A DNA stretch of 64,000 bases from a virus: the UHGV virus genome UHGV-1374671. One strand, given 5' to 3'. This document shows, in pieces, positions 37,722 through 63,797 of this stretch; the stretch's first letter is position 1; each line of letters starts with the position of its first letter. A program made the translations under genes and the position numbers. The notes under the pieces are model-generated. The model did no database searches. It saw only the letters and a program-made list of their open reading frames with translations, and was not told the DNA's origin.

Positions 37722-37731
37722 GGTACATACA

Positions 37732-44486: not shown

Positions 44487-44504
44487 TGATAGGAAGTGTT
44501 GATT

Positions 44505-45122
44505 ATGTTGTTCAACGATTTTGTCAAGATGGCGGAAGAAGAAAACACCGACAATAAGAAGCCCGATATCGAGGGCGCGGTTCCAGTTTCTCAGAAAGAT
44601 CTTAACGTCACCTCTCCCAGTAACGTGGAGAAGGGACGCCACGGAATGGAACACGGGAAAGAGGACAACCCCGACAACGACCATGCCCTCGTCATGAACC
44701 TGCTGTACAAGGCGCTGGCTGATGAGCTGCTCGCCTGGTATCAATACTGGGTGTGCCGTAACCTGTCCCGTGGTCCTGGCAAGTTCGACGTGGATCCCGA
44801 GTTCGAGGAGCACATGAAAGAGGAATGGGAACATGTCGACTGGGTGATGGAGCGCATCAAGGAGCTCGGCGGCGCTCCCTACACCAATCCGAACCAGTGG
44901 TTGCCGAATGCGAACCCGTGGCCGGAAGTCACTGAAACCTCCGTACCCGCTCAGCTGGACAAGACCATCGAAGCCGAGAATACCGCGATCAAGTTCTACA
45001 AAGAAGCCTGCGAGGCGGTCCGGCATGTCGATCTCACCACGTACACGCTGTTCAAAAAGATTCTTGGTGAGGAAGAAAAGCATGCCTACGATCTGCACAT
45101 GCTGAAGGAAGCCGTGCAGTAA
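44505..45122 (+). CDS. ferritin-like four-helix-bundle protein (bacterioferritin/Dps-like)
   Basis: The ATG at 44505 has AGGAAGTG upstream. Iron-site-like spacing LADELLAWYQYW...EEWEHVDWVMERIKELGG...AENTAIKFYKEA...LGEEEKHAYDL. Confidence 0.55.
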   Translation: MLFNDFVKMAEEENTDNKKPDIEGAVPVSQKDLNVTSPSNVEKGRHGMEHGKEDNPDNDHALVMNLLYKALADELLAWYQYWVCRNLSRGPGKFDVDPEFEEHMKEEWEHVDWVMERIKELGGAPYTNPNQWLPNANPWPEVTETSVPAQLDKTIEAENTAIKFYKEACEAVRHVDLTTYTLFKKILGEEEKHAYDLHMLKEAVQ

Positions 45123-45168
45123 GCTACGGCAATACAGTAGACTCGAACGATATAGGAAGCAAGCCCTT

Positions 45169-48100
45169 ATGGATGATATCAACGTGACGCCTGTTTTGGC
45201 GGACAGCTCCACAGTGGAGAACATTCAGGTTCGCCCGCAGCGTCCTCCCAAAACGGCAGCTGACTGGGTGCGCGACATGCGCATGTCTCCTGAAGTGAAC
45301 AAGACCACTGTCGGTGTGGAGACGGACCGGATAACTCCTGAGTTGCTGATGGCCACGTCGTCCAAGCTGCTTGGTATCTCCAGACGGGAGCAGGATCCGG
45401 ATCCCAAGGATTCCCTGCTCTTCCAGCGCTTCTACGGGCCGGCCGAATACTTTGCAGAACACATTCTGCGGGACGGCAACAAGGTGGCCCGTAACCTGCT
45501 GTGGAAAGCAACCAACAAGGGCAAGATTGACTTCGTACCGTCAGGAGCATTGGATCAGCACGTCAGCGATGTGTTCTACAGCAGCAAGCTGGCCCAGATG
45601 ATCGACGGGTCGTCTCCTTTGGAAACGGTGGACGCTTCCTTCAAGACCACCCGTATCGGCGAGGGCGGCGTCGCAGATGTGCAGTCGGCTCCTGATGAGA
45701 TGCGTACAGTGCAGCCTTCCTACTTCGGATACCTAGACTCCGTGCGCTGCTATTCGGACGATACCGAACTCATGACCAAAAATGGCTGGAAATTCGTTAC
45801 CGATATTACGGAAGACGATGAGCTTGCATGTTATATGGACGGCAGGTTGGAGTACCACAAACCAACCGCATTGAATGTATACGACTACAAGGGCAAGATG
45901 TACGGATACAAAGGTACGCATATCTCGTACCTGGTGACACCGAATCACCGGATGCATTCCAGATGTTATGGAGAACTCAGAGATGGGCGTCCTTGTGGTT
46001 ATAACATTCGTACAGCTGAGAGCATTCACGGTAAGAACAGGGTTGTAGATTCTGCCTGCCATTTGCCGTTACTGTGCAATGAGGATCAGAAATACTTTGA
46101 GCTCCCTGTGGTAGGTCCTAATCTGAAGAAAGAGCAGGTTCATGGCAATCCGCCAATGGGCGCCAGCTTGAAGAACGTGGACAAAGTGGACATCGTGAAG
46201 TTTGCCGAGTTCCTCGGATGGTACCTGGCTGAGGGTTCCTATGTGATCAATGAAACCAAAGGATACTACCGCGTTGATATTGCACAGTCCCCGGAAGTCA
46301 GTGCGGAAAACTACGAGCATATCAGACAGCTGATAGAATCTCTTCCCTTCAACGCAACCAATCCAGGTGCCGAGGAAAAAGCAAAAAGGGGCGGGCATGC
46401 CTTGTCCATCGCCAGAAAACAGCTGACCATATACGTCAGTCAGTTTGGAAAGTGCGAAGACAAGTACATACCTGAGTGGATTTTCTCAGCTCCGTTACAG
46501 GCCCGCAAAGCGTTTTGTTGGGCCCTTCTGCAAGGAGATGGACGGGAACAGAGACATCTCTGCACAAAGTCAAAGCGACTGGCTACTGACTTTGCCCGCC
46601 TGCTTTTTGAATTGGGTGAATCTGCCAAAGTATACCACGAAAAAGAAACCAGATATGAAAACCATCCTGGTATCTGGAATGTTTACTGGCACACCCGCAA
46701 AGAACGTCTTTTGGCTGGAAAAACACATAAGCACAAGGAAGGTGAATATTTCACTGAAGACTATACCGGCAAAGTGTACTGCCCGACCATACCTGGCGGT
46801 CTGGTGTACTGCCGCAGAGGCGAAAAGAGCGTTGGTTTCTGGTGCGGTAATAGTCCGGAGAGGTTACGCGTCGGATTGGATATGTATATGACCAAGAATG
46901 TGGTCAAGGGATCCGATGGAAAGCTGTACCAGAGATTCATCAACGCGCGTACCGGCAAGGAGGAGCTGGTTGACTCCGTAACAGCTTCCAGATCCATTGT
47001 GGCAGCGCCTGAGATGATGGACGCCGATACCAAGTCCATCTTCGCTCTTGGTGGTCGTACTGGCGTACGTATCGTACCCAAGGATAAGGTTGATTATTAT
47101 TTACCCAGAGCCGACGATGCGTACAGCATGTCGTCCAATATGGTGCCCATGTTCAATGGTGTGAAGGAAATGCGCCTGCTGATGGGATGCCTGCATCCGG
47201 GTACTCCGTTGATCACCATATCGGCGAAGAACGAGATCAACATCAAGCCGGCGAAATCCATTGGCAAGAATGCTTATGGAGTGCCTGGCTGCGATGCCAA
47301 AGGCAAGTCGCTGGGGTATCTGATCCGTAACAGCATTGCCAAGTTTCCCCAGAAGCGCAAGTGGTTCAAGAAGGTCGTGCTGATGTCGGGGCGGTCCCTG
47401 ATCACCAGCTACGATCACAGATGGCCAGTGCTGCGGGACGACAAGCTGGAGCTGGTGAACGCATCCGATCTTCAGCCCGGGGACAAGGTGCTCAGATCCA
47501 CGTTCAAGGATCTGCCCAATCGACGCACCTTTTTGCGCGGCGTACTGGTGAACAAGGATGTTGCCACGCTGCTGGGCTGCATCGTAAGGTCGGTCACCAA
47601 ACCTGACCCGGACAAGCTCCGGGTGGTGTACCAGCCTTCTCAGAAGAAGTTCATCGAGGCAGCCATCGAACGGCTCAAACTGGAGAACTCCCGCTTCTAC
47701 GCCAATGCCGGCGAGAAGTGCCTTGCCATTCATGACAGCAACTTCATCCAGTGGGTGGAGAAGGAGATCTGTCTGGAGCCGGAAGAGCGCAAGGTCCCCA
47801 CTGTGATTCTCAGTGCGTGCCTGGACATTGCGTCTCACTTCATCGACGCTTACACGGCCGACACCACCAAGGTCGGCATCGACAGCAACGAGGACATGTG
47901 GATCCTGGATATCCCCAGCATGATCTGCCGTGACGGTCTTGCGTTGCTGCTTGCCAGAATGCAGACGGATACCCTGTACCGGGATGCTGTGCGGGCAGAC
48001 GGAGTCAATCTGGCGTTGAAGCTGGTGGAACAGACCCCCACCTTCGGGGATTCCATTGTGGACGAGGTGAAAATTATACTCGAAGTAGAAAAGGTCCCGC

Positions 48101-51100
48101 TCATGATTGACATCGATATCGATGACAACATGTATGCGACCGCCAATGGAATCATCACACACAACTCCAAGTACCCGTTGCAGGCCATCTCCCTGCTGGA
48201 GCGGGAAGCTCCTTTGGTGAGAGGGCTGGATGAGGCGTCCGGCAGGGACATCCCGTCGTTGGCAGGCAAGTATCTCGGCGCCAGATTCGCCAACCAGGGC
48301 GGCACCGTCACCGCTGTGCGCAAGGACCGCATCGACGTCGTCTACGACGACGGCACCAAGGGCAGCGTTTCCCTGTACCAGAATTTCCCGATGAACGCCA
48401 AGGGGTACATCACCAACACGCCTGTGGTGAAAGCGGGACAGTCCTTCAAGAAGGGAGATGTATTAGCGGCGTCGAACTATACAGACGACAAAGGCGTGGC
48501 GGCCATCGGCAAGAATCTGAGATCCGGCTGGCTGTCCTGGAAGGGCGGCACCTATGAAGACGCTGTTGTAATCTCCGAATCAGCCGCCAAGAAGTTGACC
48601 AGCCGTACCATGTACAAATCGGCAGTCGACCTCGACAAGACAGTCAGTTTGGGAAAGAAGAACTACGTCTCCTGGAAGCCGTCCGAGTACACCAAGGACC
48701 AGCTGTCGGCGCTGGATGACAACGGAATCATTAAGCCGGGTTCCGTGCTTCGCAAAGGAGACCCGATGATTCTGGCGGTGCAGACATCCGAACCCTCTCC
48801 CGGGACGCTTGGCAAGCGCGTGCTGACGGATATCTCCGAGACCTGGGAACACGACCATCCGGGTGTGGTCACTGACGTGGTCAAGACCAGGAAGGGTGTG
48901 AAGGTGTTTGCCATTGTGGAAGCACCTGCGGAAGTGGGGGACAAGGTAAGCGGGAACTTCGGCAACAAGGGAGTAGTCTCGCAGCTTGGTAGAGAGTCCC
49001 AGGAAGAACAGGACGACGAGAACCAGGACTTCCAGATCCAGAAGATCGTACCGGACGCCATGATGCCCATTGGAGAGGACGGCAAGCCTCTGGATCTGCT
49101 GTTCAGTCCTCTTGGGCTTATCTCCCGTACGAACGCTTCCCAGATCCACGAGGCTCTTCTGGGCAAGATCGCCCGTAAGACTGGAAAACCGTTCGTCATG
49201 CCGGCCTTCTACAAGGGCGACCTTACGGAGTTCGTGGAGAACCAGCTGAAACAGAACAAGGTCAGCGACACGGAAGACCTGACGGATCCTTATACCGGCA
49301 GGAAGATCCCCAAAGTGCTGACCGGTGTGTCGTACATCTACAAGCTCAAGCACCAGGCCGAGTCCAAGCTGTCCGCACGCGGTACTGCCGAGTACACTGC
49401 CGAGGGCACGCCGGGTGGTTCTGGACTCACTGGGAGCAAAAGGTACGGAACTTTGGAGCAGTCCGCGATGGTCGGCCACGGTGCGTTTGACAACCTGCTT
49501 GATGCGAAACTCCTGCGTGGCCAGTCGAACTCGGATTTCTGGCGCAGCATCCGTACTGGAGAGATCCCGACGATTCCTGGAGAGCCCCTGGTGCACAAGA
49601 AGTTCTTCGCCCACCTTACAGGCTCCGGTGTGAACGTGCGCAAAACCCCGAAGGGCATCAGCGTGTTCTCGTTGTCCAACGACGATGTGAAAGAACTTGC
49701 CGGCCCCCGTGAGCTGAAATCCAAGGACACCTACGAAGCCAAGACATTCCGTCCCATCGATGGAGGACTCTTTGGTCAGGACCTGTTCGGCCCCAATGGA
49801 GACCGCTGGGCATACATCCAGCTGGACGAACCTCTGCCGAACCCTGTAATGGAGGAGCCTCTGGCGCGTCTTCTCAGAATGTCCACCAAGGACTTCATGG
49901 CAGTGGCCGCCGGCAAGGCTGAAGTGAATGGAATGAAATCCTCCGCCGACATCAAGGAACGCCTGTCCAGGATCAACTTGAAGGCCGAGGAACAGCAGGC
50001 CAAGCAGGAGTTCAAGGACGCCCCGATGTCTAAGAAGGACGCGGCGCTGAAGCGTTATCGGGACATCGCCCGCATGGCTGCGAATGAAGTGTCCCCTGAC
50101 CAGTACATGCTGGATAGGATTCCGGTGCTGCCTCCTGTCTTCCGTCCTGTCAGTACGCACAACGGACTGACCATGGTGGCCGACAGCAACTACCTGTATG
50201 CGCAGATGCTGGACGCCAGAGACGACGCCCGGGAAGCCCGCAACCTGCCCAAGGAATACCAGCAGCAGGCCAGGGAAAACCTGTACCGAAGCTGGAAGGA
50301 GCTGACCGGCATGTACGAGCCCGAGAACGTGAAGCTGAAGAACAAGCACGTGCGGGGGCTTCTGAAGTGGGCGCTTGGTGACAGTCCAAAATGGTCCGCG
50401 TTTCAGAGAAAGGTATTGGGCTCCACGGTGGACACGGTAGGCCGTGGTGTTATCACTCCGGATCCGCGCCTGAAGCTGAACCAGCTCGGCGTTCCTCTGC
50501 CGATGGCGTTGGGCATCTATGAGCCGTTCGTTGCTCGATCCATGGTCAAGCAGGGGTACTCTCCTGTGGAAGCCATGAAGATGATCAAGGTCCAGGACAA
50601 GCGCGTGATACCAGTGCTGCTTAACGTGATGAAGAACAGCCCTGTGCAGCTGAATCGGGCACCTTCGCTCCACAAGCTGAACATCATGGGATTCGAGCCT
50701 GTGCTCACTGCCGGGCACGCTGTCCGGGTAAACCCGTCCATTGTGGTGCCCTTTGCGGCGGACTTCGACGGCAACTGCTGCGATTTTGATAGTGTAATTT
50801 TCCTAAAATTATCAAAATCTGCGCTTGAAAAAACTGCTTTTATGTGCTATGTTGATCATAGTAACAAACCCGAACAAAACAAGGAGGTTTCTATGATCAC
50901 GGAAGACACAAGAGTCGTGGTGTTCAACCCGGATGAGACTGACCCGGATACTGTGTACTGCTCTATGAAGATCGGGGAGTTCCCGCGTAAGGGGGTGCCG
51001 GTGAAAGACCGGAACGGTGCTTTGGTGTACCCGGTTCCAGAAGGGGTAAGCGTACTGTCCTGCGACCCAGTTACAGGTGCTCCGAAGTTCTGCCCTGTGT

Positions 51101-52542
51101 CGGCTGTAACAGTGGAGGAGAACTGCCATACGGTAGAGTTGACTCTCGGCAGCAGAAAGATCATCGTGTCGGATAACGAATCCCTGGCCGCGTTCGACAG
51201 CAAGGCAGGTACGTTGATCAAAGTGTCCCCGGCAGAGATCGGAGATCGGATGATTCCTGTTCTGAAAAAGCAGCAGCTGCCATATGGCCCGTTCGGCACC
51301 AGGGACCTCGGCTGGATGTTCGGTGCGTTCATCTCCGATGGCTGGGTCACGCACAATATGGTGGGATACGCCAAAGTGGAAGCCAACAAGCGTGCTGAGT
51401 TCGTCAGGATCATGCGTGCGTATCACGAGAACTTTACTTGCAACGAATACACTGATCGTCCGCAGGCTGGAAAGAACAAGTTGGGCGCCTCCGTTAAGTT
51501 GCACCTGTGCAGCAAATCCCTGGCAGACTGGATGCGCAACTGGCAGCTCATAAACGAGGACTGTCCTGCGGCAGAGCGTGCTGCGCTGCGGAAGCAGATA
51601 AACAGCAAGATGATTCAGTACGGCTCCGAGGACTTCCTGTGGGGGCTGTTCTCCGGTCTCCTGGACGGTGACGGGTCCATCAGCAAAAACACGACGATGG
51701 AGAAGCCGCGCTTTACAGCCAGATTCAGCACCTCCAGCAAACAGCTGGCGGACGACATCTGCGCACTGTGTTATCGACTGGGTCTGCGTTACTCCATGAC
51801 CGTGGTACCTCCCAGAGGATTCTCCAATACGGCATACATCATCATCCCGTCCACTATTGACTTGCATGCCAAGCTGGACAAGCTCACCTGTATTGGTGAG
51901 CGGGAGATTCAGCTTATCTCGGAATGGAAGCAGCAGCCGTCGTACAAAGACACCAAAGACATGATCCCGCTGTCTGTTAAAGAAGCGGAAGTGCTGATTA
52001 AGCTGGCGAACGCCAGGAAAGACGTAGGAGTGTCCTCCGGGATCTACAAGACTAGAAAGAAGTCCTGTATCTACGGTGGTCGTGTTGGGCTGATGCGTTA
52101 CTGCGAGGAAATCAAGGAGATGTTCCCTGAGTTATACGCCCGTATTAAAAACGAGGACACCATTTGGCAGACTGTCACTTCCGTGGAGGACGCCGGCAAT
52201 CGCCAGGTGTTCGACTTGATGGTTGAGGGTACGAAAGTGTTTGCCATCAACAACGGCGTGATTATCTGGGACACCGCCAACGTGCACGTACCGGTATCCG
52301 ACAACGCCAGACGGGAGACCTATGAGAAGATGTTCCCGGAACGCAATCTGATCTCCATGCGTGAGCGCAAGGTGCTGTACAAGCCCGAAAAGGAGTACAT
52401 GCAGGGGATCTACGTGGCGACCCGCATGAAGAAGGGCAAGGATGTCCGACCGAAGATCTTCGGATCTGTGGAAGAAGCGCGTCAAGCGTTACGCAAGGGC
52501 ATTATTGATATTGATGATCCTATTGAAATACGCAAGCAATAA
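45169..52542 (+). CDS. bacterial-type RNA polymerase: beta C-terminal half fused in frame to beta' N-terminal half, interrupted by two inteins
   Basis: Aligns by eye to E. coli beta: TRIGEGGVADVQS...PSYFGY vs RISALGPGGL...PTHYGR; GDKVSGNFGNKGVVSQ vs GDKMAGRHGNKGVISK; PLGLISRTNASQI vs PLGVPSRMNIGQI. Then directly to beta': TFRPIDGGLFGQDLFGP vs TFKPERDGLFCARIFGP; PVLPPVFRP; PVLLNRAPSLHKLNIMGFEP; FAADFDGN...TANVHVP vs NADFDGDQMAVHVP. Confidence 0.85.
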   Translation: MDDINVTPVLADSSTVENIQVRPQRPPKTAADWVRDMRMSPEVNKTTVGVETDRITPELLMATSSKLLGISRREQDPDPKDSLLFQRFYGPAEYFAEHILRDGNKVARNLLWKATNKGKIDFVPSGALDQHVSDVFYSSKLAQMIDGSSPLETVDASFKTTRIGEGGVADVQSAPDEMRTVQPSYFGYLDSVRCYSDDTELMTKNGWKFVTDITEDDELACYMDGRLEYHKPTALNVYDYKGKMYGYKGTHISYLVTPNHRMHSRCYGELRDGRPCGYNIRTAESIHGKNRVVDSACHLPLLCNEDQKYFELPVVGPNLKKEQVHGNPPMGASLKNVDKVDIVKFAEFLGWYLAEGSYVINETKGYYRVDIAQSPEVSAENYEHIRQLIESLPFNATNPGAEEKAKRGGHALSIARKQLTIYVSQFGKCEDKYIPEWIFSAPLQARKAFCWALLQGDGREQRHLCTKSKRLATDFARLLFELGESAKVYHEKETRYENHPGIWNVYWHTRKERLLAGKTHKHKEGEYFTEDYTGKVYCPTIPGGLVYCRRGEKSVGFWCGNSPERLRVGLDMYMTKNVVKGSDGKLYQRFINARTGKEELVDSVTASRSIVAAPEMMDADTKSIFALGGRTGVRIVPKDKVDYYLPRADDAYSMSSNMVPMFNGVKEMRLLMGCLHPGTPLITISAKNEINIKPAKSIGKNAYGVPGCDAKGKSLGYLIRNSIAKFPQKRKWFKKVVLMSGRSLITSYDHRWPVLRDDKLELVNASDLQPGDKVLRSTFKDLPNRRTFLRGVLVNKDVATLLGCIVRSVTKPDPDKLRVVYQPSQKKFIEAAIERLKLENSRFYANAGEKCLAIHDSNFIQWVEKEICLEPEERKVPTVILSACLDIASHFIDAYTADTTKVGIDSNEDMWILDIPSMICRDGLALLLARMQTDTLYRDAVRADGVNLALKLVEQTPTFGDSIVDEVKIILEVEKVPLMIDIDIDDNMYATANGIITHNSKYPLQAISLLEREAPLVRGLDEASGRDIPSLAGKYLGARFANQGGTVTAVRKDRIDVVYDDGTKGSVSLYQNFPMNAKGYITNTPVVKAGQSFKKGDVLAASNYTDDKGVAAIGKNLRSGWLSWKGGTYEDAVVISESAAKKLTSRTMYKSAVDLDKTVSLGKKNYVSWKPSEYTKDQLSALDDNGIIKPGSVLRKGDPMILAVQTSEPSPGTLGKRVLTDISETWEHDHPGVVTDVVKTRKGVKVFAIVEAPAEVGDKVSGNFGNKGVVSQLGRESQEEQDDENQDFQIQKIVPDAMMPIGEDGKPLDLLFSPLGLISRTNASQIHEALLGKIARKTGKPFVMPAFYKGDLTEFVENQLKQNKVSDTEDLTDPYTGRKIPKVLTGVSYIYKLKHQAESKLSARGTAEYTAEGTPGGSGLTGSKRYGTLEQSAMVGHGAFDNLLDAKLLRGQSNSDFWRSIRTGEIPTIPGEPLVHKKFFAHLTGSGVNVRKTPKGISVFSLSNDDVKELAGPRELKSKDTYEAKTFRPIDGGLFGQDLFGPNGDRWAYIQLDEPLPNPVMEEPLARLLRMSTKDFMAVAAGKAEVNGMKSSADIKERLSRINLKAEEQQAKQEFKDAPMSKKDAALKRYRDIARMAANEVSPDQYMLDRIPVLPPVFRPVSTHNGLTMVADSNYLYAQMLDARDDAREARNLPKEYQQQARENLYRSWKELTGMYEPENVKLKNKHVRGLLKWALGDSPKWSAFQRKVLGSTVDTVGRGVITPDPRLKLNQLGVPLPMALGIYEPFVARSMVKQGYSPVEAMKMIKVQDKRVIPVLLNVMKNSPVQLNRAPSLHKLNIMGFEPVLTAGHAVRVNPSIVVPFAADFDGNCCDFDSVIFLKLSKSALEKTAFMCYVDHSNKPEQNKEVSMITEDTRVVVFNPDETDPDTVYCSMKIGEFPRKGVPVKDRNGALVYPVPEGVSVLSCDPVTGAPKFCPVSAVTVEENCHTVELTLGSRKIIVSDNESLAAFDSKAGTLIKVSPAEIGDRMIPVLKKQQLPYGPFGTRDLGWMFGAFISDGWVTHNMVGYAKVEANKRAEFVRIMRAYHENFTCNEYTDRPQAGKNKLGASVKLHLCSKSLADWMRNWQLINEDCPAAERAALRKQINSKMIQYGSEDFLWGLFSGLLDGDGSISKNTTMEKPRFTARFSTSSKQLADDICALCYRLGLRYSMTVVPPRGFSNTAYIIIPSTIDLHAKLDKLTCIGEREIQLISEWKQQPSYKDTKDMIPLSVKEAEVLIKLANARKDVGVSSGIYKTRKKSCIYGGRVGLMRYCEEIKEMFPELYARIKNEDTIWQTVTSVEDAGNRQVFDLMVEGTKVFAINNGVIIWDTANVHVPVSDNARRETYEKMFPERNLISMRERKVLYKPEKEYMQGIYVATRMKKGKDVRPKIFGSVEEARQALRKGIIDIDDPIEIRKQ
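45748..48165 (+). mobile_element. intein 1 (806 aa) with LAGLIDADG homing endonuclease, in the beta segment
   Basis: Begins with Cys (CYSDDTELMTKNGWKFV), block B VTPNHRM, LAGLIDADG motifs LGWYLAEGSY and ALLQGDG, ends ...GIITHN followed by Ser. Confidence 0.7.
50776..52272 (+). mobile_element. intein 2 (499 aa) with LAGLIDADG endonuclease, inserted inside the NADFDGD catalytic loop of beta'; atypical C-terminus ...IIWD
   Basis: Starts CCDFDSVIF right after DFDGN. LAGLIDADG motifs MFGAFISDGW and LFSGLLDGDGSI. C-terminal block VFDLMVEGTKVFAINNGVIIWD followed by T(ANVHVP); the canonical ending would be VVHN. Confidence 0.6.
50780..50895 (+). promoter_or_regulatory. AT-rich island inside intein 2 with TTGAAA-N17-TATGTT, SD AAGGAGG and an in-frame ATG
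   Basis: tgtaattttcctaaaattatcaaaatctgcgcTTGAAAaaactgcttttatgtgcTATGTTgatcatagtaac...AAGGAGGtttctATG at 50893, same frame as the host ORF. Local GC is far below the surrounding ~58%. Confidence 0.45.
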
Positions 52543-52562
52543 CCCGAAGTGAGGCACAGCAT

Positions 52563-52751
52563 ATGCAGAGTATGAGACATCTCTACGGACTCGACAAACA
52601 GGCGGCTCAGAAGAAACAGGCCTTCGCCAAGAAGCTCGCCGACTTCATGCGTCACCAGCGCATGGAGGCGCAGCAGAAAGCCGCTGCTGCCGTCGAACGC
52701 GGTAAGAACAACGTCCTGGCCATGATCCGTCAGGCCTGCAACAGCAAATAA
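52563..52751 (+). CDS. small protein with RHLYGLxK N-terminus
   Basis: SD GAGG. MQSMRHLYGLDKQAA parallels the start of the next gene. Confidence 0.4.
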   Translation: MQSMRHLYGLDKQAAQKKQAFAKKLADFMRHQRMEAQQKAAAAVERGKNNVLAMIRQACNSK

Positions 52752-52762
52752 GGAGCGCGGCA

Positions 52763-53746
52763 ATGAGTGAGAAATACAGACATCTCTACGGACTGGGTAA
52801 AGCGGCTGTGGCTGTACTTACTCCGGAAGCAGAGCAAGCGGCTGTTCAGCCTCCGATGGACCCTGCCATGGCTGGCGGCGCTCCTCCGATGGATCCGATG
52901 GCGGCCGGAGGAATGCCTCCGCAGGGCGGCGCTGGAGCTCCTCCGATGGGTGGCGCTCCGATGCCGCCGCCGGCAGGCGGACAGATCCCGCCGGAAATCC
53001 TCCAGGACCAGATGTTCATCCAGTTTCTGCAGGAGGCGCTGGGGGTGTCCCTTGATCCGGCGTCGGGCATGTTCATGGGCCCGAATGGCGAACAGATCCC
53101 GCCCCAGCTTATCATTGAGGCCTACCAGGAGTTCCAGACGATGCAGGCCCAGGGCGGCATGCCGCCTGCAGGAGCTGGGGCTCCGCCTGCGGCAGGCATG
53201 GATCCGGCTATGGCAGCAGGTGGTGCTCCGATGCCGGCAGGAGCCCCGCCGATGGATCCCATGGCTGCGGGAATGCCTCCGGAAGCGGCTGGTGGAGTTC
53301 CTCCGGAAATGGGAGGAACCCCTGAAGAAGTGCCTCCGGAAATGGGCGCTGCACCTGAAGCAGGTGCTCCTGCGCCGGCTGCTGGACCGGAAGCGATGAT
53401 GCAGGAACTGCTGTCTGGAGTAGAGGCCGTGCTGCAGTCCTTCTCCGGAAAGCTGGACAAGCAGCTCAGTGCCATCCAGGACAAGATCGAGGCTCTGAAG
53501 ATGGATGTCGAATCACTGCGGGACACCACGGACCAGCGCACCAAGATGGAAGAGGACGAGGCTGCCCGTATCCGGGAAGAGCTGGAAGCAGAGCTTGTGC
53601 CCACCGCCGTTGCCCAGAAGGAGGCCAGCATTTCCATTCCGGCTCCGCAGCCGATCAAGATGCCGACCGTTGAGAACAAGCCGAGCACCAGGAAGCGTAC
53701 CGGCACTCCGAACCTGTTCTCCGTGATCCAGGGAGGAAAACGATGA
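52763..53746 (+). CDS. Pro/Ala/Met/Gly-rich low-complexity protein with RHLYGLxK N-terminus and coiled-coil C-terminus
   Basis: SD AAGGAG. MSEKYRHLYGLGKAAV. Repeats GGAPPMDPMAAGGMPP. Confidence 0.5.
   Translation: MSEKYRHLYGLGKAAVAVLTPEAEQAAVQPPMDPAMAGGAPPMDPMAAGGMPPQGGAGAPPMGGAPMPPPAGGQIPPEILQDQMFIQFLQEALGVSLDPASGMFMGPNGEQIPPQLIIEAYQEFQTMQAQGGMPPAGAGAPPAAGMDPAMAAGGAPMPAGAPPMDPMAAGMPPEAAGGVPPEMGGTPEEVPPEMGAAPEAGAPAPAAGPEAMMQELLSGVEAVLQSFSGKLDKQLSAIQDKIEALKMDVESLRDTTDQRTKMEEDEAARIREELEAELVPTAVAQKEASISIPAPQPIKMPTVENKPSTRKRTGTPNLFSVIQGGKR
52850..53350 (+). repeat. low-complexity Pro/Ala/Met-coding repeats
   Basis: Seen in the translation. Confidence 0.5.
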
Positions 53747-54585
53747 ACTATATCGAAGTACAGAAGATGCGGAAAGAAGCCGCATCGGAATCCAGTCTTG
53801 ACAAGTTCTTGATGAATCACGAGACTCTCGGCAAGCCCTACATGGAAAAAATGTCACCGCAGGAAATGCTGTATCACGGCGTAGGGGCCGTGGGCGGTGG
53901 AGCCCTCGGTTACATGCTGTCTCGTATGATCCATCGTAAGCCCAGCGGCATGCTGCGCGCCCTGTATACGCTGGGAGGCGCGGCTGCCGGTGGTGTTGCC
54001 CCGTACTATCTGCTGCGGGCCAAGAAGGATGAACAGGGGCTGACGGAAGCGGATCGCATGCGCCTCCAGGACGCTTGGGCGCATGCGCCCAAGGCACTGC
54101 AGGAAGCGCGCAATCAGGCAGAGGGACTGAAGCCCAATGGTGAGGAGCTGCCCAACGAGAAACCTATTCAGACCCGTATCGCGGATGCTATTCCCGGCAA
54201 TATATGGTGGTACGGCGGTGCTGGTGCGGCCATCGATGCCGGCAGATTCGCAAAAGAGCGTCTTAACATTTTTGAGCAGAACCGGAAGCTCCAGCCGAAC
54301 GAAGTGAAAGTAACGGTTAAGCCTCCCAAAGGCAAACCTACGACCACCACTACAACCGAGACTGCTGCCGAGAAACCGTATCCGCGTTTCTTCCCCACAA
54401 AGGAAGAGTTCAAGAAGACACCTGTGGCCGCTACCAACTACACGTTGTTTAAGCGCCTCAGAGGTACACTTGGCGGCGTCACGTTAGGTACGGTACTGGC
54501 GCTTCTCCGCAGCAAGGCAGGAGACAATCAAGTTCTTGACCCGCTGTCCAAGGAGAACTTGGACCAAGCGCTGCAGAACAAGTAA
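53743..54585 (+). CDS. glycine-zipper 2TM membrane protein
   Basis: VGAVGGGALGYMLS...LYTLGGAAAGGVAPYYLL. Confidence 0.5.
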   Translation: MNYIEVQKMRKEAASESSLDKFLMNHETLGKPYMEKMSPQEMLYHGVGAVGGGALGYMLSRMIHRKPSGMLRALYTLGGAAAGGVAPYYLLRAKKDEQGLTEADRMRLQDAWAHAPKALQEARNQAEGLKPNGEELPNEKPIQTRIADAIPGNIWWYGGAGAAIDAGRFAKERLNIFEQNRKLQPNEVKVTVKPPKGKPTTTTTTETAAEKPYPRFFPTKEEFKKTPVAATNYTLFKRLRGTLGGVTLGTVLALLRSKAGDNQVLDPLSKENLDQALQNK

Positions 54586-54600
54586 GCAGAAACAGGGATT

Positions 54601-56907
54601 GTGACCATGTTGACGACACTGGGCAGAGAACTGATTCGGGCAAAGCTCCCCGAGAAGTACAAGGGGTACGCGGATCAGGTTCTGGACAAGAAAACACTGA
54701 CCAATCTGATGACCGAGATCGCCAGAGAGGATCCGGAAGGGTACATCGACGTTCTGCAGGATCTCAACAACATTGGACAGGAAGTCGTGTCCACATACGG
54801 ACGGGACACCTCGCTCTCGTATGCAGACCTGAAAGTCGACAATGAGATCAAAGCCCTGAACAAGCGCCTGCGGCAGGTCATCAAGGGAGTCCTCAATGAC
54901 GATTCCCTTACCAGCGAGCAGAAGGAAGAGAAGATCAAGGAACTGGGATACAAGTACACGCAGAAGGTGCAGGACGCGGTATTCCAGGACAACGACAAGC
55001 GAGGAACGTCGCTGGCCTCCCAGATCAACTCAGGCTCTCGTGGAAATAAAACCCAGTTGATGCAGCTCCAGTTCGGCAACATGCTGATGAAAGATGCACT
55101 CAACCGGGACATTCCTTATCTGATGATAGACCCGTTCGTCCATGGTGCGTCACCGATGTCGTACTGGGTGTCCGCGTCCAGTGGGCGCAAGGGGTTCTTC
55201 GATGTGCAGGCCGCCACCGGACAGGCCGGATATCTGGGCAAGCAGGTGACAGCCGCCACACACAGAACCACCATTGAGAAAGAGGACTGCGGCACCACCG
55301 ACACCGGAGTGCCGTTTCCTGCCAACAGCACGAAGAACGTGGGCGCGGTTCTGCTGCGCCCCTTCCACAAATACCCGGCAGGCACGGTTGTCACTGAGAA
55401 GATGGTTGCCGAGGCCGATGACGACGAGGAGATGATTCTGCGCAGTCCAACCACCTGCAAGTGCAAGGACGGCATCTGCGCCAAGTGCAATGGGCTGGGA
55501 GAGAATGGGAAGTTTCCGGCAGTGGGCGAGTATGTGCCGCTGAATGCTGCGCGTTCTTTTGTTGAGCCGGTTACGCAAGGAGGGATCTCGTGTCTGCATC
55601 CTGGAACACAGGTACGTATGGCAGACTGGTCTATCAAAGCACTGCGTGATATCAGGGTAGGCGATCGCGTTATGGGCGTTCACACCGATGGTTCTTATGA
55701 ACCCGCCCTCGTCACCCGGACGTTCGATAATGGCATTGTTCCGATGTACTTGACAAAGTTCCGTAAGGGCACTGATAAGATTGCCGTGCTGATGTCCACC
55801 ACATGTCACAAAATGCTCTTATCTGTCGACGGGGATGCTCCTGCCATTCTTCCTGTAGGTACAGATGGCCAGCTCAGCGCGTGTCAGACTATCGGACCTG
55901 CAGGGTATACTGATAAGCAGATTAAGATGTCACACTTCAAACGCATCTCTCAGGAATATATCGGAGACATGCAATCGCTGGATATTGAGATCGACAACGA
56001 CTCCCATCTGTTTCTGTTGGCCAATGGCCTGGTGGTTTCCAATTCCAAACATGGCGCGGGTATTGGAGGCAAGCGATGGGTCGATCCCGAGGGGCCTGAC
56101 CAGCCGCACGGGTTCCGTGCCCTTGAGCGTCTGTTCATGGCTCCCAGCAACTTCCCGGGCGGAGCCGTACTTGCCCCGCAGGACGGCACGGTAAGCAACA
56201 TTCAGAAGGCCTCCCAGGGCGGCCATTACATCACGGTGGGCAACAAGACGCTGTACTGCTCTCCAGATCGCACTATGAAAGTCAAAGTCGGGGACAAGGT
56301 GTCCGCCGGCGACGTACTTACCAATGGTGTGCCCAATCCTGCCGAGGTGATGGATCTCAAAGGACTGGGAGAGGGCCGGCATTACTTCGTCAACAAATTG
56401 AACGAAACCTTGAAGGCACAGGGCTGGGCAACAGACCGCAGAAATATCGAGGCGTTTACACGCAGCATGATTAGTAAGGTCAAAATCACCGACCCTGACG
56501 GATACAAGTCGTATCTGCCTGGTGATATTGCCGATTACAACGAGATCATGGCTGACTGGGAGCCCAGGGAAGGATCCGTCACAGTGAAAGCGGATCAGGC
56601 GCTGAACAAGTACCTGGAGAAACCGACCCTGTACTTCAGCGTCGGCACCAGGATCACCCCGTCAGTTGTGCAGCAGTTGAAGAAATACAAGTTTGATACT
56701 GTGACGGTGTCGGATAAGGAGCCTCCTTTCAAAGCTCAGTTCCTGCGTCCTGCTGTTGTGCTGCAGAACGACAAGAACTGGTTGCCCAGGCTGGCGGGAG
56801 AGCGGCTGCAGCCAGCACTGTTTGATGCAGCGCAGAAGGGCATCACCGACGAGTACGACTCGCCGAGTTACGTTGACAAAATCGTGGCGGCGCCATTTAA
56901 ACCATAA
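54601..56907 (+). CDS. RNA polymerase beta' C-terminal half, with mini-intein
   Basis: [20 protein letters not shown] vs [28 protein letters not shown] vs VTEDDCGT; Zn/Cys cluster; EPVTQGGIS...SKHGAGIGG vs GEPGTQLTMRTFHIGG. Confidence 0.85.
   Translation: [768 protein letters not shown]
55591..56043 (+). mobile_element. mini-intein (151 aa, no endonuclease) in the beta' trigger-loop region
   Basis: [13 protein letters not shown]..., block B [9 protein letters not shown], ends LANGLVVSN followed by Ser. Confidence 0.75.
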
Positions 56908-56921
56908 GAGGTAGACAAGTT

Positions 56922-59120
56922 ATGCACAAATTGATCGTAAGACAAGGTATCATGAAACACGCTGCCGAGGAGGATGGTCCGTCTTTCGAGCAGCAGTTCG
57001 GCATTCTGGCCAATGCTATGGTGACTGACAAGTTCCCGCAGCTGGACAACATGAAACTCGCATTTCAGTTGATCGAGAAGTCCGACGACAATCAGGATGC
57101 CTGTGGTGCTTCTGTCTATCTGGTCGGCCGCACTGTCATTTTCATTCCGGCGTTCTTCCGCAACAACAAGCTGAAGACCGGTGATATGATGTTCTCCGCG
57201 CAGTCCCAGTCTTTCCTCCCTCTGTCCGATCCGTGGCTGGCATGGATCAAGAACAAGGACCTGGACGATGGCGGCAAGGAAGTTCCGTCCTCGGTTGCGG
57301 ACAACCGCAGCAACCCGAAGGGCGTCACCATTCGCGAGATCTCGGATCCGATCATGAAGACCGCGTCCGTGTTCCTCAAGGGACTGCTGCATGTGGAACC
57401 GTCACTGGAGGCCAAGCTCAATGACGTCAGCATCCTGGACACCGCGATCCGCATGGGCAAGCAGGCCTCCGAGAACCTGCTCGACAAGCTGCTCCAGGAT
57501 CAGGACTATCTCAATGCGACGCTGACCTTTTATACCGGCAATGACCTGGACAAATTCGCCAAGCAGGCAGCCGCACTGGCCGAGCCTGTGGTGAAGGCTG
57601 AGCTGATTCTGCCGCTGGACAAGAAGGCGCATACGCTGAACGAGGTCGAACTCAAGGCGCTGTACAAGGACGGGTTCTTCATCCGCAAGACTGCCGCCTC
57701 CAAGAACAATCCCAATGTGATCCGCTACAAGCAGATCTCCGGCATGTTCAGTGCGCTGTCCGACATCGGGCGGGTTCAGCTGCTGGTTGCCGGCGGTGAT
57801 TTGAAGGACTGTCTGGTTCTCCGCAAAGCCAACTGGAAGGACATCGGCACCGACACCTACGACGATTGCTGTTGTTCCCCATACGACAATCGCGGTACGA
57901 AAACCGACCCTGCCATGACTGCATCCGGATATATGGGCGGTGCAAAAGACGCCGGGTTTGTTGTTTTGGACGAGAAAGGCAAGCCGCTTAATCTGCCGGC
58001 TGGAGTGATGGTGCTGGCCAACAGCAAGGAGAAGTTCGACAAGGACATGATCAAGGACATCGGACATGCCCTTACGCCTGACAGCATCAAGAGCATTCCG
58101 TGGGGTGCGTCCATCATTCTGCCCACCGGAGAAGTCCGCAGAGCGCTTGGACACATGCAGAAGGCCGTCAACGGCAAGGGCTGGGTCAACGAGGACAGGT
58201 CCATCAGCATCTCCGACAATCCGGATCTGAAACGTCCCATCGGCAGCGGCAACGCAGTCATCCTTCCGCAGGGCTGTCGCATCGTGTTCTGTCCTGTTGA
58301 GTACAACGAGGACGGTACGGAGCGCAGCTACGAGGAGCGGGACAAGATGCACAGTGAGGCCCAGAAGGCTCCCAGTGCTTCCCCGGCGTTTGTCACCATG
58401 GGAACGCTGGATGCGTTCATCACCGACTTCTGCAACAAGCGGTACGACGTTACCAAGATTTACAGCAACGGGCAGGAGTTCGTCATCAGCGACAAGCTGG
58501 ATATGAGCAACCCGCCCATGAGCATCAAGGAAGCCGCGTTCACACTGGTTGACCGCTATGAGATCGATCCGGCCATCGCCAAGGTCATGCTCAAGGAAGC
58601 CAACAACGGCGCCACTTACGACCACCCGCGCTCGACCCAGTATTTCCTGGAGAAGCGGGCCGACGAGATGTGGGACGACGCCAACATCCCGATGACCAAG
58701 ATGCCGAACAAGCCGCCGCGCACCGAGTTCCAGGATATGCCGACCACGTTGGAAGATCCGGCTCAGCTGCAGAAGGCCATCACCACGGCCGCGCAGAACG
58801 GCATCAAGGAAGTGTTCGACGTCACCACGCTCAAGCTGCTGGTGCGCCAGAACCGTTTCTTCGACGAGATCAGTGACGACATCCCGCTGTTCATGCGCAC
58901 GCTGGACAGCCTGTGTCGCAAACTGTTCCAGTTCTACTGGCATACGGACAAAATGGAAGAAAAGTACGGTATGGTGAAAATGAAAGCGCTGGAAGAGAGC
59001 CTCAAGTGCACGATTGACAGTCTTTCAGAACTCACCGTGTTCTTCAAGCTGCGTACTGTCGATGGCTCCGGTACTGTTGGAGACAGTAACGGTGACCTGA
59101 TGACAGGCAATATGCTGTAA
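56922..59120 (+). CDS. hypothetical 732-aa protein adjacent to the RNAP genes (candidate additional or divergent RNAP subunit)
   Basis: SD AAGAGGTAG. Only faint resemblance to beta N-terminal blocks (GRTVIFIPAFF vs ERVIVSQLHRSPGVFF). Confidence 0.5.
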   Translation: MHKLIVRQGIMKHAAEEDGPSFEQQFGILANAMVTDKFPQLDNMKLAFQLIEKSDDNQDACGASVYLVGRTVIFIPAFFRNNKLKTGDMMFSAQSQSFLPLSDPWLAWIKNKDLDDGGKEVPSSVADNRSNPKGVTIREISDPIMKTASVFLKGLLHVEPSLEAKLNDVSILDTAIRMGKQASENLLDKLLQDQDYLNATLTFYTGNDLDKFAKQAAALAEPVVKAELILPLDKKAHTLNEVELKALYKDGFFIRKTAASKNNPNVIRYKQISGMFSALSDIGRVQLLVAGGDLKDCLVLRKANWKDIGTDTYDDCCCSPYDNRGTKTDPAMTASGYMGGAKDAGFVVLDEKGKPLNLPAGVMVLANSKEKFDKDMIKDIGHALTPDSIKSIPWGASIILPTGEVRRALGHMQKAVNGKGWVNEDRSISISDNPDLKRPIGSGNAVILPQGCRIVFCPVEYNEDGTERSYEERDKMHSEAQKAPSASPAFVTMGTLDAFITDFCNKRYDVTKIYSNGQEFVISDKLDMSNPPMSIKEAAFTLVDRYEIDPAIAKVMLKEANNGATYDHPRSTQYFLEKRADEMWDDANIPMTKMPNKPPRTEFQDMPTTLEDPAQLQKAITTAAQNGIKEVFDVTTLKLLVRQNRFFDEISDDIPLFMRTLDSLCRKLFQFYWHTDKMEEKYGMVKMKALEESLKCTIDSLSELTVFFKLRTVDGSGTVGDSNGDLMTGNML

Positions 59121-59128
59121 GGAACCGT

Positions 59129-60043
59129 ATGGACGAAACTGCCACCATAGTGGACGCGGAGCTGCTCGATGTTCAGGCACCTCCGCCGTCCGAAAAAACT
59201 CCCTCCAACACAAGGGAGTTTTTTCTTAGACCGCCGGACTGGCGTTACCAGGAAGCCAGCAAGTATTTGAACGAGGAGCGGGACGGTTTTGTCCCGTCCA
59301 TCCCCTCTGATGTGTTTGTCCAGTTTGCCGTGCGCGGCATTCGGGCTATGAGAAGTCCGCGAACCAGGGACGTGCTGCTCGCCAAGAACTACAACCTGGC
59401 GGCGGCTCTGTACTGCGGGGTGACCGCCAGACACAGCTCCCTGGTGGCCGAAATGGAAGCACTCATCATAGGTGGCTACACCAGGGACACGCTGTCGAAG
59501 GCAACCACCAGAATCAACAAGGACATATTCGAGCTGTACAGGAGAATCTTCTTCGACCTGACAGGCATCACTGCGATGCACTCCTGGATTAACCATTTTC
59601 TATTTGAGCCTGAGAGATATGCAGAGAGTCCGATTCTGTTGCGTTCCAGACTCCTGGCTTATTACAGCTCGGTGCAGGACGGTGTGGATGCCGCGAACAT
59701 GCAGCCATTGAGCAAGGAAGCGCGTGACTGCATGCAGTCCATCATGGAGAATGAGCGGCATAAGAAGATCTTTGATTATGTCGTAAAGGTTGCGCACCTG
59801 GAGCCTGAGAAGTATGCCGAAATCATGGAGGCGGCCATCAAGTCCGCTTCCGACCGCGCGTTTGTGGAACGCATGAAGGAACGGGAAGAGAGCGGGTCGG
59901 CTTCCTTGGAAGAACTGGCCACCGGACTGGAAGAAGGCATCCGGGCATTCAGCCTCGACGAGCTGGAAGCCTCGAAGCAGGATAAAATTGGTCTTGATTT
60001 CGACAACAAGTATATAAGTGCAATCCTGAGAAAGGATCAATAA
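59129..60043 (+). CDS. hypothetical protein
   Basis: SD AAGGAA. Confidence 0.5.
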   Translation: MDETATIVDAELLDVQAPPPSEKTPSNTREFFLRPPDWRYQEASKYLNEERDGFVPSIPSDVFVQFAVRGIRAMRSPRTRDVLLAKNYNLAAALYCGVTARHSSLVAEMEALIIGGYTRDTLSKATTRINKDIFELYRRIFFDLTGITAMHSWINHFLFEPERYAESPILLRSRLLAYYSSVQDGVDAANMQPLSKEARDCMQSIMENERHKKIFDYVVKVAHLEPEKYAEIMEAAIKSASDRAFVERMKEREESGSASLEELATGLEEGIRAFSLDELEASKQDKIGLDFDNKYISAILRKDQ

Positions 60044-61916: not shown

Positions 61917-63797
61917 ATGAAGAAACACTTTCTTCCTGAGAGCTTCGATTTTGGGATGCCGTCCGTTGAGCTGATCGGAGTCGGTACCAAAGGACTGGAC
62001 AAGACTGCCATGGTGAAGCGGGCCAGCGCGTTCGACGATGTGATCGGGGATCTGAAAAAGAAACCCAATCGCGAGTACCTGCATGTGATCACCACCGGCG
62101 CGTTTGAGAAGTACGGCGCCAACGCCAACTGTTTCATTGGTGAAACCCCTGTCCTGACCACACTGACTGGGAAACGCAAAAAGATCAAGGACATCAAAGA
62201 GGGCGATCTGGTGCTGACCGGCAAAGGTCGTTTGCGTCCTGTTACCAAGGTCTATGTCAGGAAGTATGCCGGAGAGATCATTGAGGTATGGGGTACGGAA
62301 TGGAAAAGCAAAGTATCCATGACAGCAGAGCACCCGGTGCAGGTGGTCAACCCCGGTAACCGGGAAACGCTGGACGGCAAGTTCGTGAAAGCGTGTACGC
62401 TTACGATCAATGACGAACTGGTGGTGCCGGCCATGGACCATGTTAAGAGCGGTAATAAGGAGTTTCACGACAAAGTCGCTCTTGTCAGATCTCGAAATGC
62501 CAAATGTTCCACGGTGTTCAATCTTGAGGTGGAGGAAGACCACACGTACTGCATTCCGTTCGTGGTGCACAACTGCGACGGCTGGAATGGTGAGTCGTTT
62601 GATCTGGAATTCCCGCATCCAGAAGACCAGAAAAAGAAAAAGATCACGTTGGACGGCGGGTTGTCCAAGTACCATGACGATACCTACATGAAGAACGGTG
62701 CCGTGTACCAGGAACACAAGACCAAGCGTGCCGGCGTCGATCCCAGCGGGGAAGTCGTAGCTGCACGGTACAACCCGATCATGAAGCGCGGTGAGTTAAT
62801 TATCAGCGTGGACACTGGCAAATGGGCTTCCCGCCTGCAGAAGAAAGCGCAGGGCAAGGATATCTATCTCAGCATCGGGGCCGACGTGCCGCATGACATT
62901 TGTAACATCTGTGGACGCATCGCCAAGACCGCAAGCCAGCACTGCGATCACTTCAAGAAGCACCGTGGCCAGGTGTACGACTCCGGTGTGCGTGCCTGTG
63001 TGATGAACGACTCCCCGAGTTTCTACGACATCAGCGGAGTCGACGTTCCGGCTGATCAAATCGCTTTTGTTCTCAGCAAGGTGGCCAGCGGCTCTACGGC
63101 CAAGGAGGCCGCGCTGGAAGTGCTGAGCGTCTGCACTCCCCGTCGCCCGATGCTGTACACCAAAGCGGCTGCCATTTTGGACAAGCTCTCCAAGATGGAG
63201 AAACAGCTGGTCGGCATGGTGGAGGGAGACAAACAGGAGCCCGCTTTCCATGACGATGACGAAGTCGCCAAAGATTTTATACTCAAAGTAGAAAACTTCC
63301 CCAGCGACGAAATCATCGACAGCTGTAATCGGAAAGGCATCCTGTTGTCCCCCGGCATGCTGTTCAAGATCATGGGCAAGGACTGCACGGAGGACTCCGA
63401 CAAGGAGATGCTGTGCGGACTGGATGACGACTGCTGCGGGGATTGCTCCACGATGTTCGAGGACATGGAAGAGGATGAGTGCTGCAACGAGGAACTGCTG
63501 GACGGCAGCTTTGACGAGCACCTCCCGGCTGACCTGTCGTTGGACGCCATCCTTGAGAAGTTCGTACCGGAGTTCGGTGTCACCCAGCCGGCTATGCAAG
63601 GCAAGATCATCACCGTCACCATCACCGGGCGCAAGGGGAAAGAGCCCAAGCAGGAGTCCAAAGAGGCTTCTCTTAATAAGCAGGCACAGGAAGCTCTCCG
63701 GCGCACGTATGCCAGGTACGTCATCAGTTTCGCCGAACGAAATGACGACGCAACCTGTTACAATGCGCTGAGAAAAATAGCAGTTTACGGCAAATAA
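61917..63797 (+). CDS. Cys-rich hypothetical protein interrupted by a mini-intein
   Basis: SD GGGGAA. Extein junction ...TTGAFEKYGANAN / CDGWNGESFDL. CNICGR...HCDHF and CCGDC clusters. Confidence 0.6.
   Translation: MKKHFLPESFDFGMPSVELIGVGTKGLDKTAMVKRASAFDDVIGDLKKKPNREYLHVITTGAFEKYGANANCFIGETPVLTTLTGKRKKIKDIKEGDLVLTGKGRLRPVTKVYVRKYAGEIIEVWGTEWKSKVSMTAEHPVQVVNPGNRETLDGKFVKACTLTINDELVVPAMDHVKSGNKEFHDKVALVRSRNAKCSTVFNLEVEEDHTYCIPFVVHNCDGWNGESFDLEFPHPEDQKKKKITLDGGLSKYHDDTYMKNGAVYQEHKTKRAGVDPSGEVVAARYNPIMKRGELIISVDTGKWASRLQKKAQGKDIYLSIGADVPHDICNICGRIAKTASQHCDHFKKHRGQVYDSGVRACVMNDSPSFYDISGVDVPADQIAFVLSKVASGSTAKEAALEVLSVCTPRRPMLYTKAAAILDKLSKMEKQLVGMVEGDKQEPAFHDDDEVAKDFILKVENFPSDEIIDSCNRKGILLSPGMLFKIMGKDCTEDSDKEMLCGLDDDCCGDCSTMFEDMEEDECCNEELLDGSFDEHLPADLSLDAILEKFVPEFGVTQPAMQGKIITVTITGRKGKEPKQESKEASLNKQAQEALRRTYARYVISFAERNDDATCYNALRKIAVYGK
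62130..62573 (+). mobile_element. mini-intein (148 aa)
   Basis: CFIGETPVLT, block B TAEHPVQVV, ends YCIPFVVHN followed by Cys. Confidence 0.7.

Follow-up and report, generated by a model that had tools for sequence, protein, structure and literature searches.

The window analysed here, a stretch of 64,000 nucleotides of the virus genome UHGV-1374671, carries an open reading frame (ORF; 54601-56907, plus strand) which holds in frame a segment of 151 codons (55591-56043), very probably a genuine and active mini-intein of the class-1 type in the trigger loop of a phage RNA polymerase beta' subunit. The large ORFs of the window all lie on the plus strand and include tail-fibre and helicase families, which marks the window as part of a large genome of a tailed phage. 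Counted from the ATG at 54607, where homologues begin, the ORF comprises 766 amino acids (aa) and is a homologue of the beta' C-terminal half; it contains Rpb1 domain 5, in which bridge helix and trigger loop are located. It matches Pfam RNA_pol_Rpb1_5 with 58.7 bits (cutoff 28.5, E 8.4e-16), the match spanning the insert, as well as NCBIfam rpoC_TIGR (7e-49). The nearest isolate by protein is Salmonella phage Arash, whose gp216 is 28% identical and without the insert, and a near-identity nucleotide search with window positions 50000-60000 gave no match among 50,697 phage records. The gene is laid out as follows (a slash within a sequence marks a junction):

54607 to 55590, plus strand: N-extein, residues 1-328, with the bridge-helix region and the first trigger-loop helix, ending in ...EPVTQGGIS.
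55591 to 56043, plus strand: mini-intein, 151 aa, from Cys1 to Ser150-Asn151, recognized by translation, precise absence in the sibling contig L002, fold model, Foldseek and TIGR01443.
55591 to 55632, plus strand: block A with the Cys1 nucleophile (TGT, 55591-55593), from the Hom_end_hint match to residues 1-34 and the PI-SceI alignment.
55798 to 55809, plus strand: block B, T70-T-C-H73 (TxxH), with T70 and H73 invariant in 27 copies.
55891 to 55926, plus strand: low-confidence loop, about residues 101-112, at the position of the LAGLIDADG domain in full-length alleles, from a predicted local distance difference test (pLDDT) score of 61 for residues 101-110 and the P0002/L003 alignment.
55981 to 56043, plus strand: blocks F and G with Asp131, Ser150 and Asn151 (AAT, 56041-56043), D131 and N151 being invariant and TIGR01443 matching residues 131-152.
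56044 to 56046, plus strand: +1 Ser (TCC), the C-extein nucleophile, invariant and placed by solved-structure alignment.
56050 to 56052, plus strand: catalytic trigger-loop His (CAT), equivalent to E. coli beta' H936 and three residues past the junction, from the alignment of 'sskhgag' with 'rtfhtgg'; H484 is invariant.
56044 to 56907, plus strand: C-extein, 287 aa and the stop codon, from the ORF and homologue alignment.

The segment is translated without a stop codon (CLHPGT...TTCH...), and the codons that follow it, TCC AAA CAT, read S-K-H. Its boundaries are given by sibling phages. Close homologues of the window beta' C-half, obtained by a search of 5.8 billion proteins, fall into three length classes of about 615, about 770 and about 990-1000 aa. 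The short form P0005 (615 aa, contig L002) has flanks which are 99% identical to those of the window and lacks exactly 151 residues, with GGIS and SKH being contiguous. The L002 DNA, about 93% identical, matches the window at 52270-55586 and 56044-57826 with 4 unaligned bases between these blocks, so that the window features a net insertion of 453 nt. An earlier note on this DNA, made from the letters alone, had proposed a 151-aa element at 55591-56043 that splits EPVTQGGIS / SKHGAGIGG; this was exact in translation, and L002 lacks precisely these residues. The long form P0002 (993 aa, contig L003) has the same segment ends with about 227 extra residues in the middle of the element, resulting in an intein of 378 aa at the same site which includes a LAGLIDADG_3 domain. 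Among the 120 best homologues, the site is empty in 52, occupied by the mini form in 46 and by the full-length form in 22. Many long phage contigs carry the mini form; one example is the P0004 cluster with 47 members, on contigs of up to 183 kb.

At the DNA level, the empty site reads CAAGGAGGGATAAGC / TCCAAGCATGGGGCG across the junction. Adjacent to it (55586-55590 and 56044-56070 compared with L002 10976-11010), 8 synonymous differences occur in 45 nt versus about 7% regionally. The -1 Ser codon is TCG in all four occupied alleles with Ser at this position (window, L003, L087, and L088) and AGC in the closest empty allele, L002. A homing, co-conversion or immunity footprint was considered for this codon and rejected: TCG is likewise present in 8 of 40 empty alleles and the occupied ones are close relatives, so the codon gives no evidence of it.

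In an alignment of 27 mini-form copies, which are 30-84% identical to the window copy, the residues C1, T6, V8, G29, V41, T70, H73, D131, N151, and S+1 are invariant. This covers the first nucleophile, block B, the block F Asp, the cyclising Asn and the +1 nucleophile, in agreement with the C1, TTCH block B and ...VVSN/S read in the earlier note. The AlphaFold2 model (27-sequence alignment) is all-beta with a mean pLDDT of 91.4 and a predicted template-modelling score (pTM) of 0.86, residues 101-110 being the sole weak stretch. Compared with the PDB by Foldseek, the 50 best matches of this model were exclusively inteins, bacterial intein-like (BIL) or hedgehog Hint domains, led by the Ssp DnaE (1zd7, template-modelling (TM) score 0.83, E = 1.9e-7) and Npu DnaE (4kl5) inteins. 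The 151-aa segment is predicted from the model to have a Hint fold. In addition, NCBIfam TIGR01443 intein_Cterm matched with 17.4 bits, just above the cutoff of 15.6. No nuclease family was matched within the segment in Pfam and NCBIfam scans, and comparison with PHROGs gave no family. The designation as a Hint-only mini-intein was thus well founded; its counter-case, an insertion without Hint-fold similarity, is not what the fold model and Foldseek returned. Class 3 inteins have a non-nucleophilic N-terminus and a Trp-Cys-Thr motif, with an internal Cys of block F serving as first nucleophile; this class does not apply, as Cys1 is present and block F is without Cys. An intron was rejected as well, since Rfam at E <= 0.1 over 45000-57000 gave no RNA family.

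The position of the element within the polymerase follows from the intein-less P0005, which was compared with solved beta' chains by HMMER (E = 4.6e-36) and aligned to C. difficile beta' 7l7b_D. This alignment, in which 'epvtqggisskhgagigg' of P0005 stands opposite 'epgtqltmrtfhtggvag' of solved beta', bears out the equation of the flanks with GEPGTQLTMRTFHIGG in the earlier note. The insertion lies inside the first trigger-loop helix, between the TQ-containing part of the helix and the catalytic His, where it had been placed before. With the numbering of E. coli beta' (TQLTM932-R933-T934-F935-H936), which is consistent with the alignment ranges 135-336 / 721-941, the insertion falls between the equivalents of R933 and T934, and the +1 Ser occupies the T934 position. 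The residues T325, Q326, K483, and H484, which flank the site, are invariant in 18 of 18 aligned homologues including Salmonella phage Arash. Inteins are known to prefer the conserved active-site motifs of enzymes for replication and transcription, and an intein in the trigger loop fits this rule.

According to the mechanism proposed for the active mini-intein, the gene would be translated as a 766-aa precursor in which the 151-residue Hint domain interrupts the first trigger-loop helix. The Cys1 thiol would attack the carbonyl of Ser(-1) in an N-S acyl shift, the N-extein would be moved to the Ser+1 hydroxyl by trans-esterification, Asn151 would cyclise and thereby release the intein, and an O-N shift would finally create a native peptide bond in ...EPVTQGGIS-SKHGAG.... 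The spliced product would be the sequence which is directly encoded by the intein-less siblings. As the trigger loop must fold on the bridge helix and bring the His to the substrate, the subunit would be inactive before splicing. A beta domain of 151 residues is incompatible with folded trigger helices, so the precursor should remain inactive until spliced and splicing should be obligatory.

Compared with two other mini alleles, the ratio of nonsynonymous to synonymous divergence (dN/dS) of the window intein is 0.10 and 0.08, while the flanks have 0.014 and 0.057. With a value of about 0.1, the splicing domain is constrained as a protein, if less tightly than the polymerase. The synonymous divergence of the intein (0.96) is more than double that of the flanks (0.41), which points to a history separate from theirs. 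The window copy and the full-length intein of L003 are identical in the first 58 and last 36 residues and unalignable by BLASTN in the middle; thus, the window copy looks like a mosaic and not like a fresh deletion derivative. A simple recent deletion of the nuclease was rejected, as the middle is too diverged from the L003 allele to be aligned. On the extein tree of 120 sequences, at least 36 gain or loss steps are required, and an empty relative at >= 95% extein identity exists for 19 of the 68 occupied alleles. Both show that the presence/absence pattern is that of a mobile element which was repeatedly gained and lost. Without a homing endonuclease the window element cannot spread alone, and it would persist by descent and recombination. 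Copying into empty alleles might take place during co-infection, with the LAGLIDADG nuclease being provided by a relative that has a full-length allele.

Some results weigh against an active intein. The isolated segment reaches 25.7 bits with Pfam Hom_end_hint, for which the cutoff is 32.1 (residues 1-34, 1.4e-5), the best PDB sequence match is a weak one to PI-SceI (E = 0.003; blocks A and G), and the penultimate residue is Ser150, not the His which usually assists Asn cyclisation. The 68 occupied homologues feature S (47), H (13), A (4), K (2), G (1), and R (1) at this position. The penultimate Ser is a family trait, and splicing may be slow or reliant on other residues. Inteins with a Gly-Asn end have already been recorded (PMC1635734), thus Ser150 represents a known kind of variation and the intein membership stands. 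The assignment rests on the fold model, which is a prediction, and on the polymorphism and the motifs; splicing itself and its efficiency are inferred, with indirect support from the dN/dS of about 0.1 and the essential site.

As a special case of the active mini-intein, splicing might depend on redox state, temperature or a host cue and thereby time the activity of the polymerase. The precursor cannot form a working trigger loop, so that splicing would act as a post-translational gate on phage transcription, and nuclease-less copies would be kept as a timer or environmental switch; as a whole, such a gate is an outside chance. The site guarantees an inactive precursor, the mini form is immobile alone and under purifying selection, and conditional splicing is documented for other inteins, e.g., the P. 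horikoshii RadA intein (PMC4513877). Nevertheless, no sensor is indicated, the extra cysteines C72 and C98 are unconserved in the family, and free loss and gain among near-identical phages fits a purely selfish element, which makes conditional splicing of the trigger-loop intein unlikely.

It is more doubtful still that the intein is decayed and splicing-dead and that this copy of the beta' C-half is non-functional. The loss of the nuclease domain and the missing penultimate His would agree with decay. However, the catalytic residues are all intact, the dN/dS of about 0.1 reflects constraint at the protein level next to very strong constraint on the flank (0.014), and the same mini form is carried by many long phage contigs, those of the P0004 cluster among them. 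A Hint domain limited to cleavage, like those of the BIL or hedgehog type, which would cut the subunit into two chains at the trigger loop, is very improbable, although the fold matches include BIL2 and hedgehog Hint structures (6y75, 6tyy, 1at0) and phage multisubunit polymerases often come as several polypeptides. The best fold matches are true inteins, empty alleles encode a continuous chain across the site, and Cys1, the terminal Asn and the +1 Ser, i.e., the full ligation set, are invariant; moreover, BIL domains reside in variable and often secreted proteins and usually do not have the full ligation set, whereas the host here is a conserved active-site element of a polymerase, so the element does not fall under the BIL or cleavage-only definition.

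A lineage-specific trigger-loop insertion which is kept in the mature enzyme without splicing, like SI3 of E. coli beta', is hardly credible: some bacterial trigger loops tolerate large insertions and the Hint matches by sequence are weak, but the fold is Hint and not a sandwich-barrel hybrid motif, the complete intein catalytic set is invariant, presence and absence are precise between 99%-identical flanks with a nuclease-bearing allele at the same site, and this site is in the first trigger-loop helix, with the catalytic His three residues further on, and not at the loop tip. SI3 and the element are alike as large extra domains within the beta' trigger-loop region. Still, SI3 remains in the mature enzyme, has another fold (sandwich-barrel hybrid motif) and is located at the loop tip, whereas the element features the predicted Hint fold and splicing residues and is absent in near-identical siblings.

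Among known inteins, the active mini-intein proposed here is closest in predicted fold to Ssp DnaE (1zd7), Npu DnaE (4kl5), the Ssp DnaB mini-intein (1mi8) and the Mtu RecA splicing domain (2imz), with TM scores of 0.77-0.83. It resembles these canonical class-1 domains in its length (about 140-160 aa), Cys1, TxxH, block F Asp, terminal Asn and +1 nucleophile, but the identity is only 14-21% and the penultimate residue is Ser and not His. The Ssp DnaB mini-intein and the Mtu RecA splicing domain are engineered nuclease deletions and derive from replication and repair proteins, whereas the element is natural and its host protein is a phage RNA polymerase. PI-SceI (the yeast VMA1 intein), the best match by direct sequence comparison, aligns with block A of the element at its N-terminus (CFAKGTNVLMADGS and CFAKGTNVLMADGSIECIENIEVGNKVMGK, both of PI-SceI) and with block G at FLLANQVVVHN. 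PI-SceI has a LAGLIDADG nuclease, as does the full-length sibling allele; it differs by its 454 aa, its nuclease and DNA-recognition regions and its V-ATPase host, and the match is weak and limited to the ends.

Inteins of multisubunit RNA polymerases are on record as Mja rPol A', Mja rPol A'' and Nph rPol A'' and in RPB2, RPA2 and RPC2 of eukaryotes and large DNA viruses (PMC1635734, PMC4760082, PMC10710043), with 14 archaeal RNA polymerase inteins being tabulated (PMC4760082). Like the element, they are found in conserved catalytic regions, and several non-allelic inteins per gene are possible. The element differs by its host, a tailed phage of bacteria, and by its site in the trigger-loop helix, a comparison in which the exact sites of the archaeal A'' inteins could not be established. 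A scan for the exact site, defined as GEP[GA]TQxTxx directly followed by a Cys codon and hence covering Cys-initiated inteins with the canonical flank at this very residue, gave one chance match in an unrelated Bacteroidales surface protein among 185,579 prokaryotic species (one genome each) and no match in IMG/VR. Thus, no polymerase of cellular origin in the scanned genomes combines the canonical flank with a Cys-initiated intein at the exact position. In the literature, no report was found of an intein in the trigger loop, in a phage multisubunit beta' or rpoC, or in a jumbo-phage polymerase, and none of relevance on phage Arash. Accordingly, insertion site and host were not found described, while the element is otherwise of a known kind, a class-1 mini-intein.

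The trigger-loop site is part of a wider pattern. IMG/VR yielded at least 146 related genes, of which 80 loci were kept, mostly on contigs of 30-230 kb and many on contigs of 150-230 kb. Even relatives with no more than 31-38% flank identity to the window have the site occupied, and inteins homologous to the window mini-intein (BLASTP E 1e-9 to 1e-32) are present at five or more other bridge-helix and trigger-loop sites of the same beta' C-half family. Two or three of these sites are in the bridge helix (ARKGVxDxK[FL]/.../ST[QR]DAG and DAGFF/.../SKQ), one is ahead of EPxTQ (AAAQAL/.../SEPVTQ), one is a single residue upstream of the window site (QGSL/.../SSKH) and one is right behind the catalytic His (NFKH/.../SG). 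The sister inteins have Cys1, the ...VSN end and the +1 Ser in common with the window intein. Carriers of the sister sites are the loci L015, L018, L020, L022, L025, L029, L071, L074, and L082 as well as the proteins P0189-P0337.

A profile search of 1.84 billion representative proteins gave 209 clusters at E <= 1e-30 and 1,685 at E <= 1e-10. Four high-scoring long matches (P0189, P0191, P0196, P0210) were scanned; all of them feature Hint domains and three also Rpb1 domain 5. Matches to the C-terminal profile in 149 listed proteins mostly show one or two copies per protein, with a maximum of four (e.g., in P0189, 1219 aa). The profile-found copies have Cys1 in 259 of 266 and the +1 Ser in 242 of 264 cases. 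P0196 (2248 aa) shows six matched stretches and three LAGLIDADG stretches. A single intein lineage thus occupies sites ahead of a Ser in bridge helix and trigger loop, the two mobile elements of the polymerase, and has spread to several of them within a clade of uncultured large phages. Repeated jumps of this lineage between six or more +1-Ser sites are a less speculative reading than splicing as a gate on transcription, with better support, and would turn the clade into a natural model of how inteins gain new insertion sites. Finding the same lineage at several bridge-helix and trigger-loop sites, with up to four copies detected per protein, offers a rare view of ectopic spread within one enzyme. 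Moreover, a compact natural mini-intein with Cys1 and Ser+1, a Ser-Asn end and many natural variants is useful for work on splicing, homing and protein engineering, to which matched empty, mini and full-length alleles in near-identical phages add interest. For annotation, inteins account for length differences of hundreds of codons between the polymerase genes of these phages.

In the clade of the window phage, the polymerase consists of a fused beta/beta' N-half gene and a separate beta' C-half gene, with two small genes of unassigned function (327 and 280 aa) between them. Salmonella phage Arash (L001) likewise has a long 'subunit beta' gene of 1525 aa, gp206, several genes upstream of gp216. 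The fused protein has 1590 aa in intein-less siblings and 2457 aa in the window. Compared with L002, the polymerase genes of the window carry three insertions, 45748-46851, 50773-52269 and the mini-intein at 55591-56043, which have no detectable similarity to each other. The partner gene and its insertions are:

45169 to 52542, plus strand: fused beta and beta' N-half, 2457 aa, with Pfam Rpb2_6, Rpb1_2, Intein_splicing and LAGLIDADG_3.
45748 to 46851, plus strand: first insertion, 368 aa, CYSDDTELM...FWCGN/S, in the beta part between ...YLDSVR and SPERLRVG, absent in L002 and L003.
50773 to 52269, plus strand: second insertion, 499 aa, located within DFDGD, the Mg-binding motif of the beta' N-half, and carrying Intein_splicing and LAGLIDADG_3.

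The earlier note had counted the trigger-loop element as the third independent intein in one polymerase. Three mutually dissimilar insertions indeed exist, but they are distributed over two genes and the junctions of the second are non-canonical. The 368-aa insertion has a Gly-Asn end and a weak LAGLIDADG_3 match of 22.0 bits, just below the cutoff.

In the DFDGD intein, the block register places Cys1 at 50776 and the end at ...NNGVIIWD/T. The window reads AADFDGN/CCDFDSV...NNGVIIWD/TANVH, compared with AADFDGD/TANVH in intein-less relatives; residue -1 is Asn where these relatives have the third catalytic Asp, and the intein itself ends with Asp. The combination of Asn at -1, terminal Asp and +1 Thr was found in 8 of 8 N-junctions and 14 of 14 C-junctions read, including DHDGN and DMDGN, in relatives of down to about 35% identity (among the relatives are P0164, P0165, P0178, P0188, and L085). 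Canonical splicing would result in DFDGN-T. It is a chemically possible idea that the -1 Asn cyclises and opens to isoasparagine with an Asp-like carboxylate, leaving the chain unligated. The DFDGD intein is thus stranger than the trigger-loop intein and deserves separate study. A scan of IMG/VR with it gave no close relative.

In many relatives, the element at the DFDGD site is naturally split into two overlapping ORFs (L085 662-6022 and 6001-7602; P0166-P0177), L085 being a 180.6-kb contig (JGI 3300077578). ORF-A ends with ...GMDFDGNCLDFDSKILVKVSKS...QVS*, and ORF-B, in another frame, begins about 50 residues into the element and contains the LAGLIDADG domain and block G (...GGLVVYD/TASYSVP), followed by the last ca. 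90 residues of the beta' N-half. The arrangement resembles a split intein whose N-piece is short and whose C-piece is long and contains the nuclease. Both halves are fused in one frame in the window. In two further IMG/VR loci, L027 at about 200 (GADFDGD/SVSMDTKLLL...) and L036 at about 79 (SADFDGD/SQFSHVFW...), extra sequence directly follows an intact DFDGD, which suggests further insertions, Ser-initiated inteins or introns, at the adjacent position.

Outside the polymerase genes, the ORF 61917-63797 (626 aa, function unassigned) has a mini-intein of its own, 148 aa at 62130-62573 (CFIGETPV...FVVHN/C), with weak Hint, PT-HINT and Intein_splicing matches. L002 (16855-19938) and L003 carry this 148-aa intein and a second one of 401 aa (CFPKGTLV...GIDVHN/C) at ...GADVPHD[IT]/CNICG; the latter is absent from the window, where the position is empty (about 62897-62900). 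A weak LAGLIDADG_3 match was recorded for the whole protein that carries the 401-aa intein. Just upstream of the fused polymerase gene, the ORF 44496-45122 has as its counterpart in L002 and L003 a 205-aa product matching Pfam Ferritin, by which the phage is predicted to encode a ferritin-like protein. Further upstream (32325-39078), a protein of 1798 aa with three Laminin_G_3 (concanavalin-like) stretches is followed by one of 448 aa with RCC1 repeats; both are probably host-recognition or fibre components.

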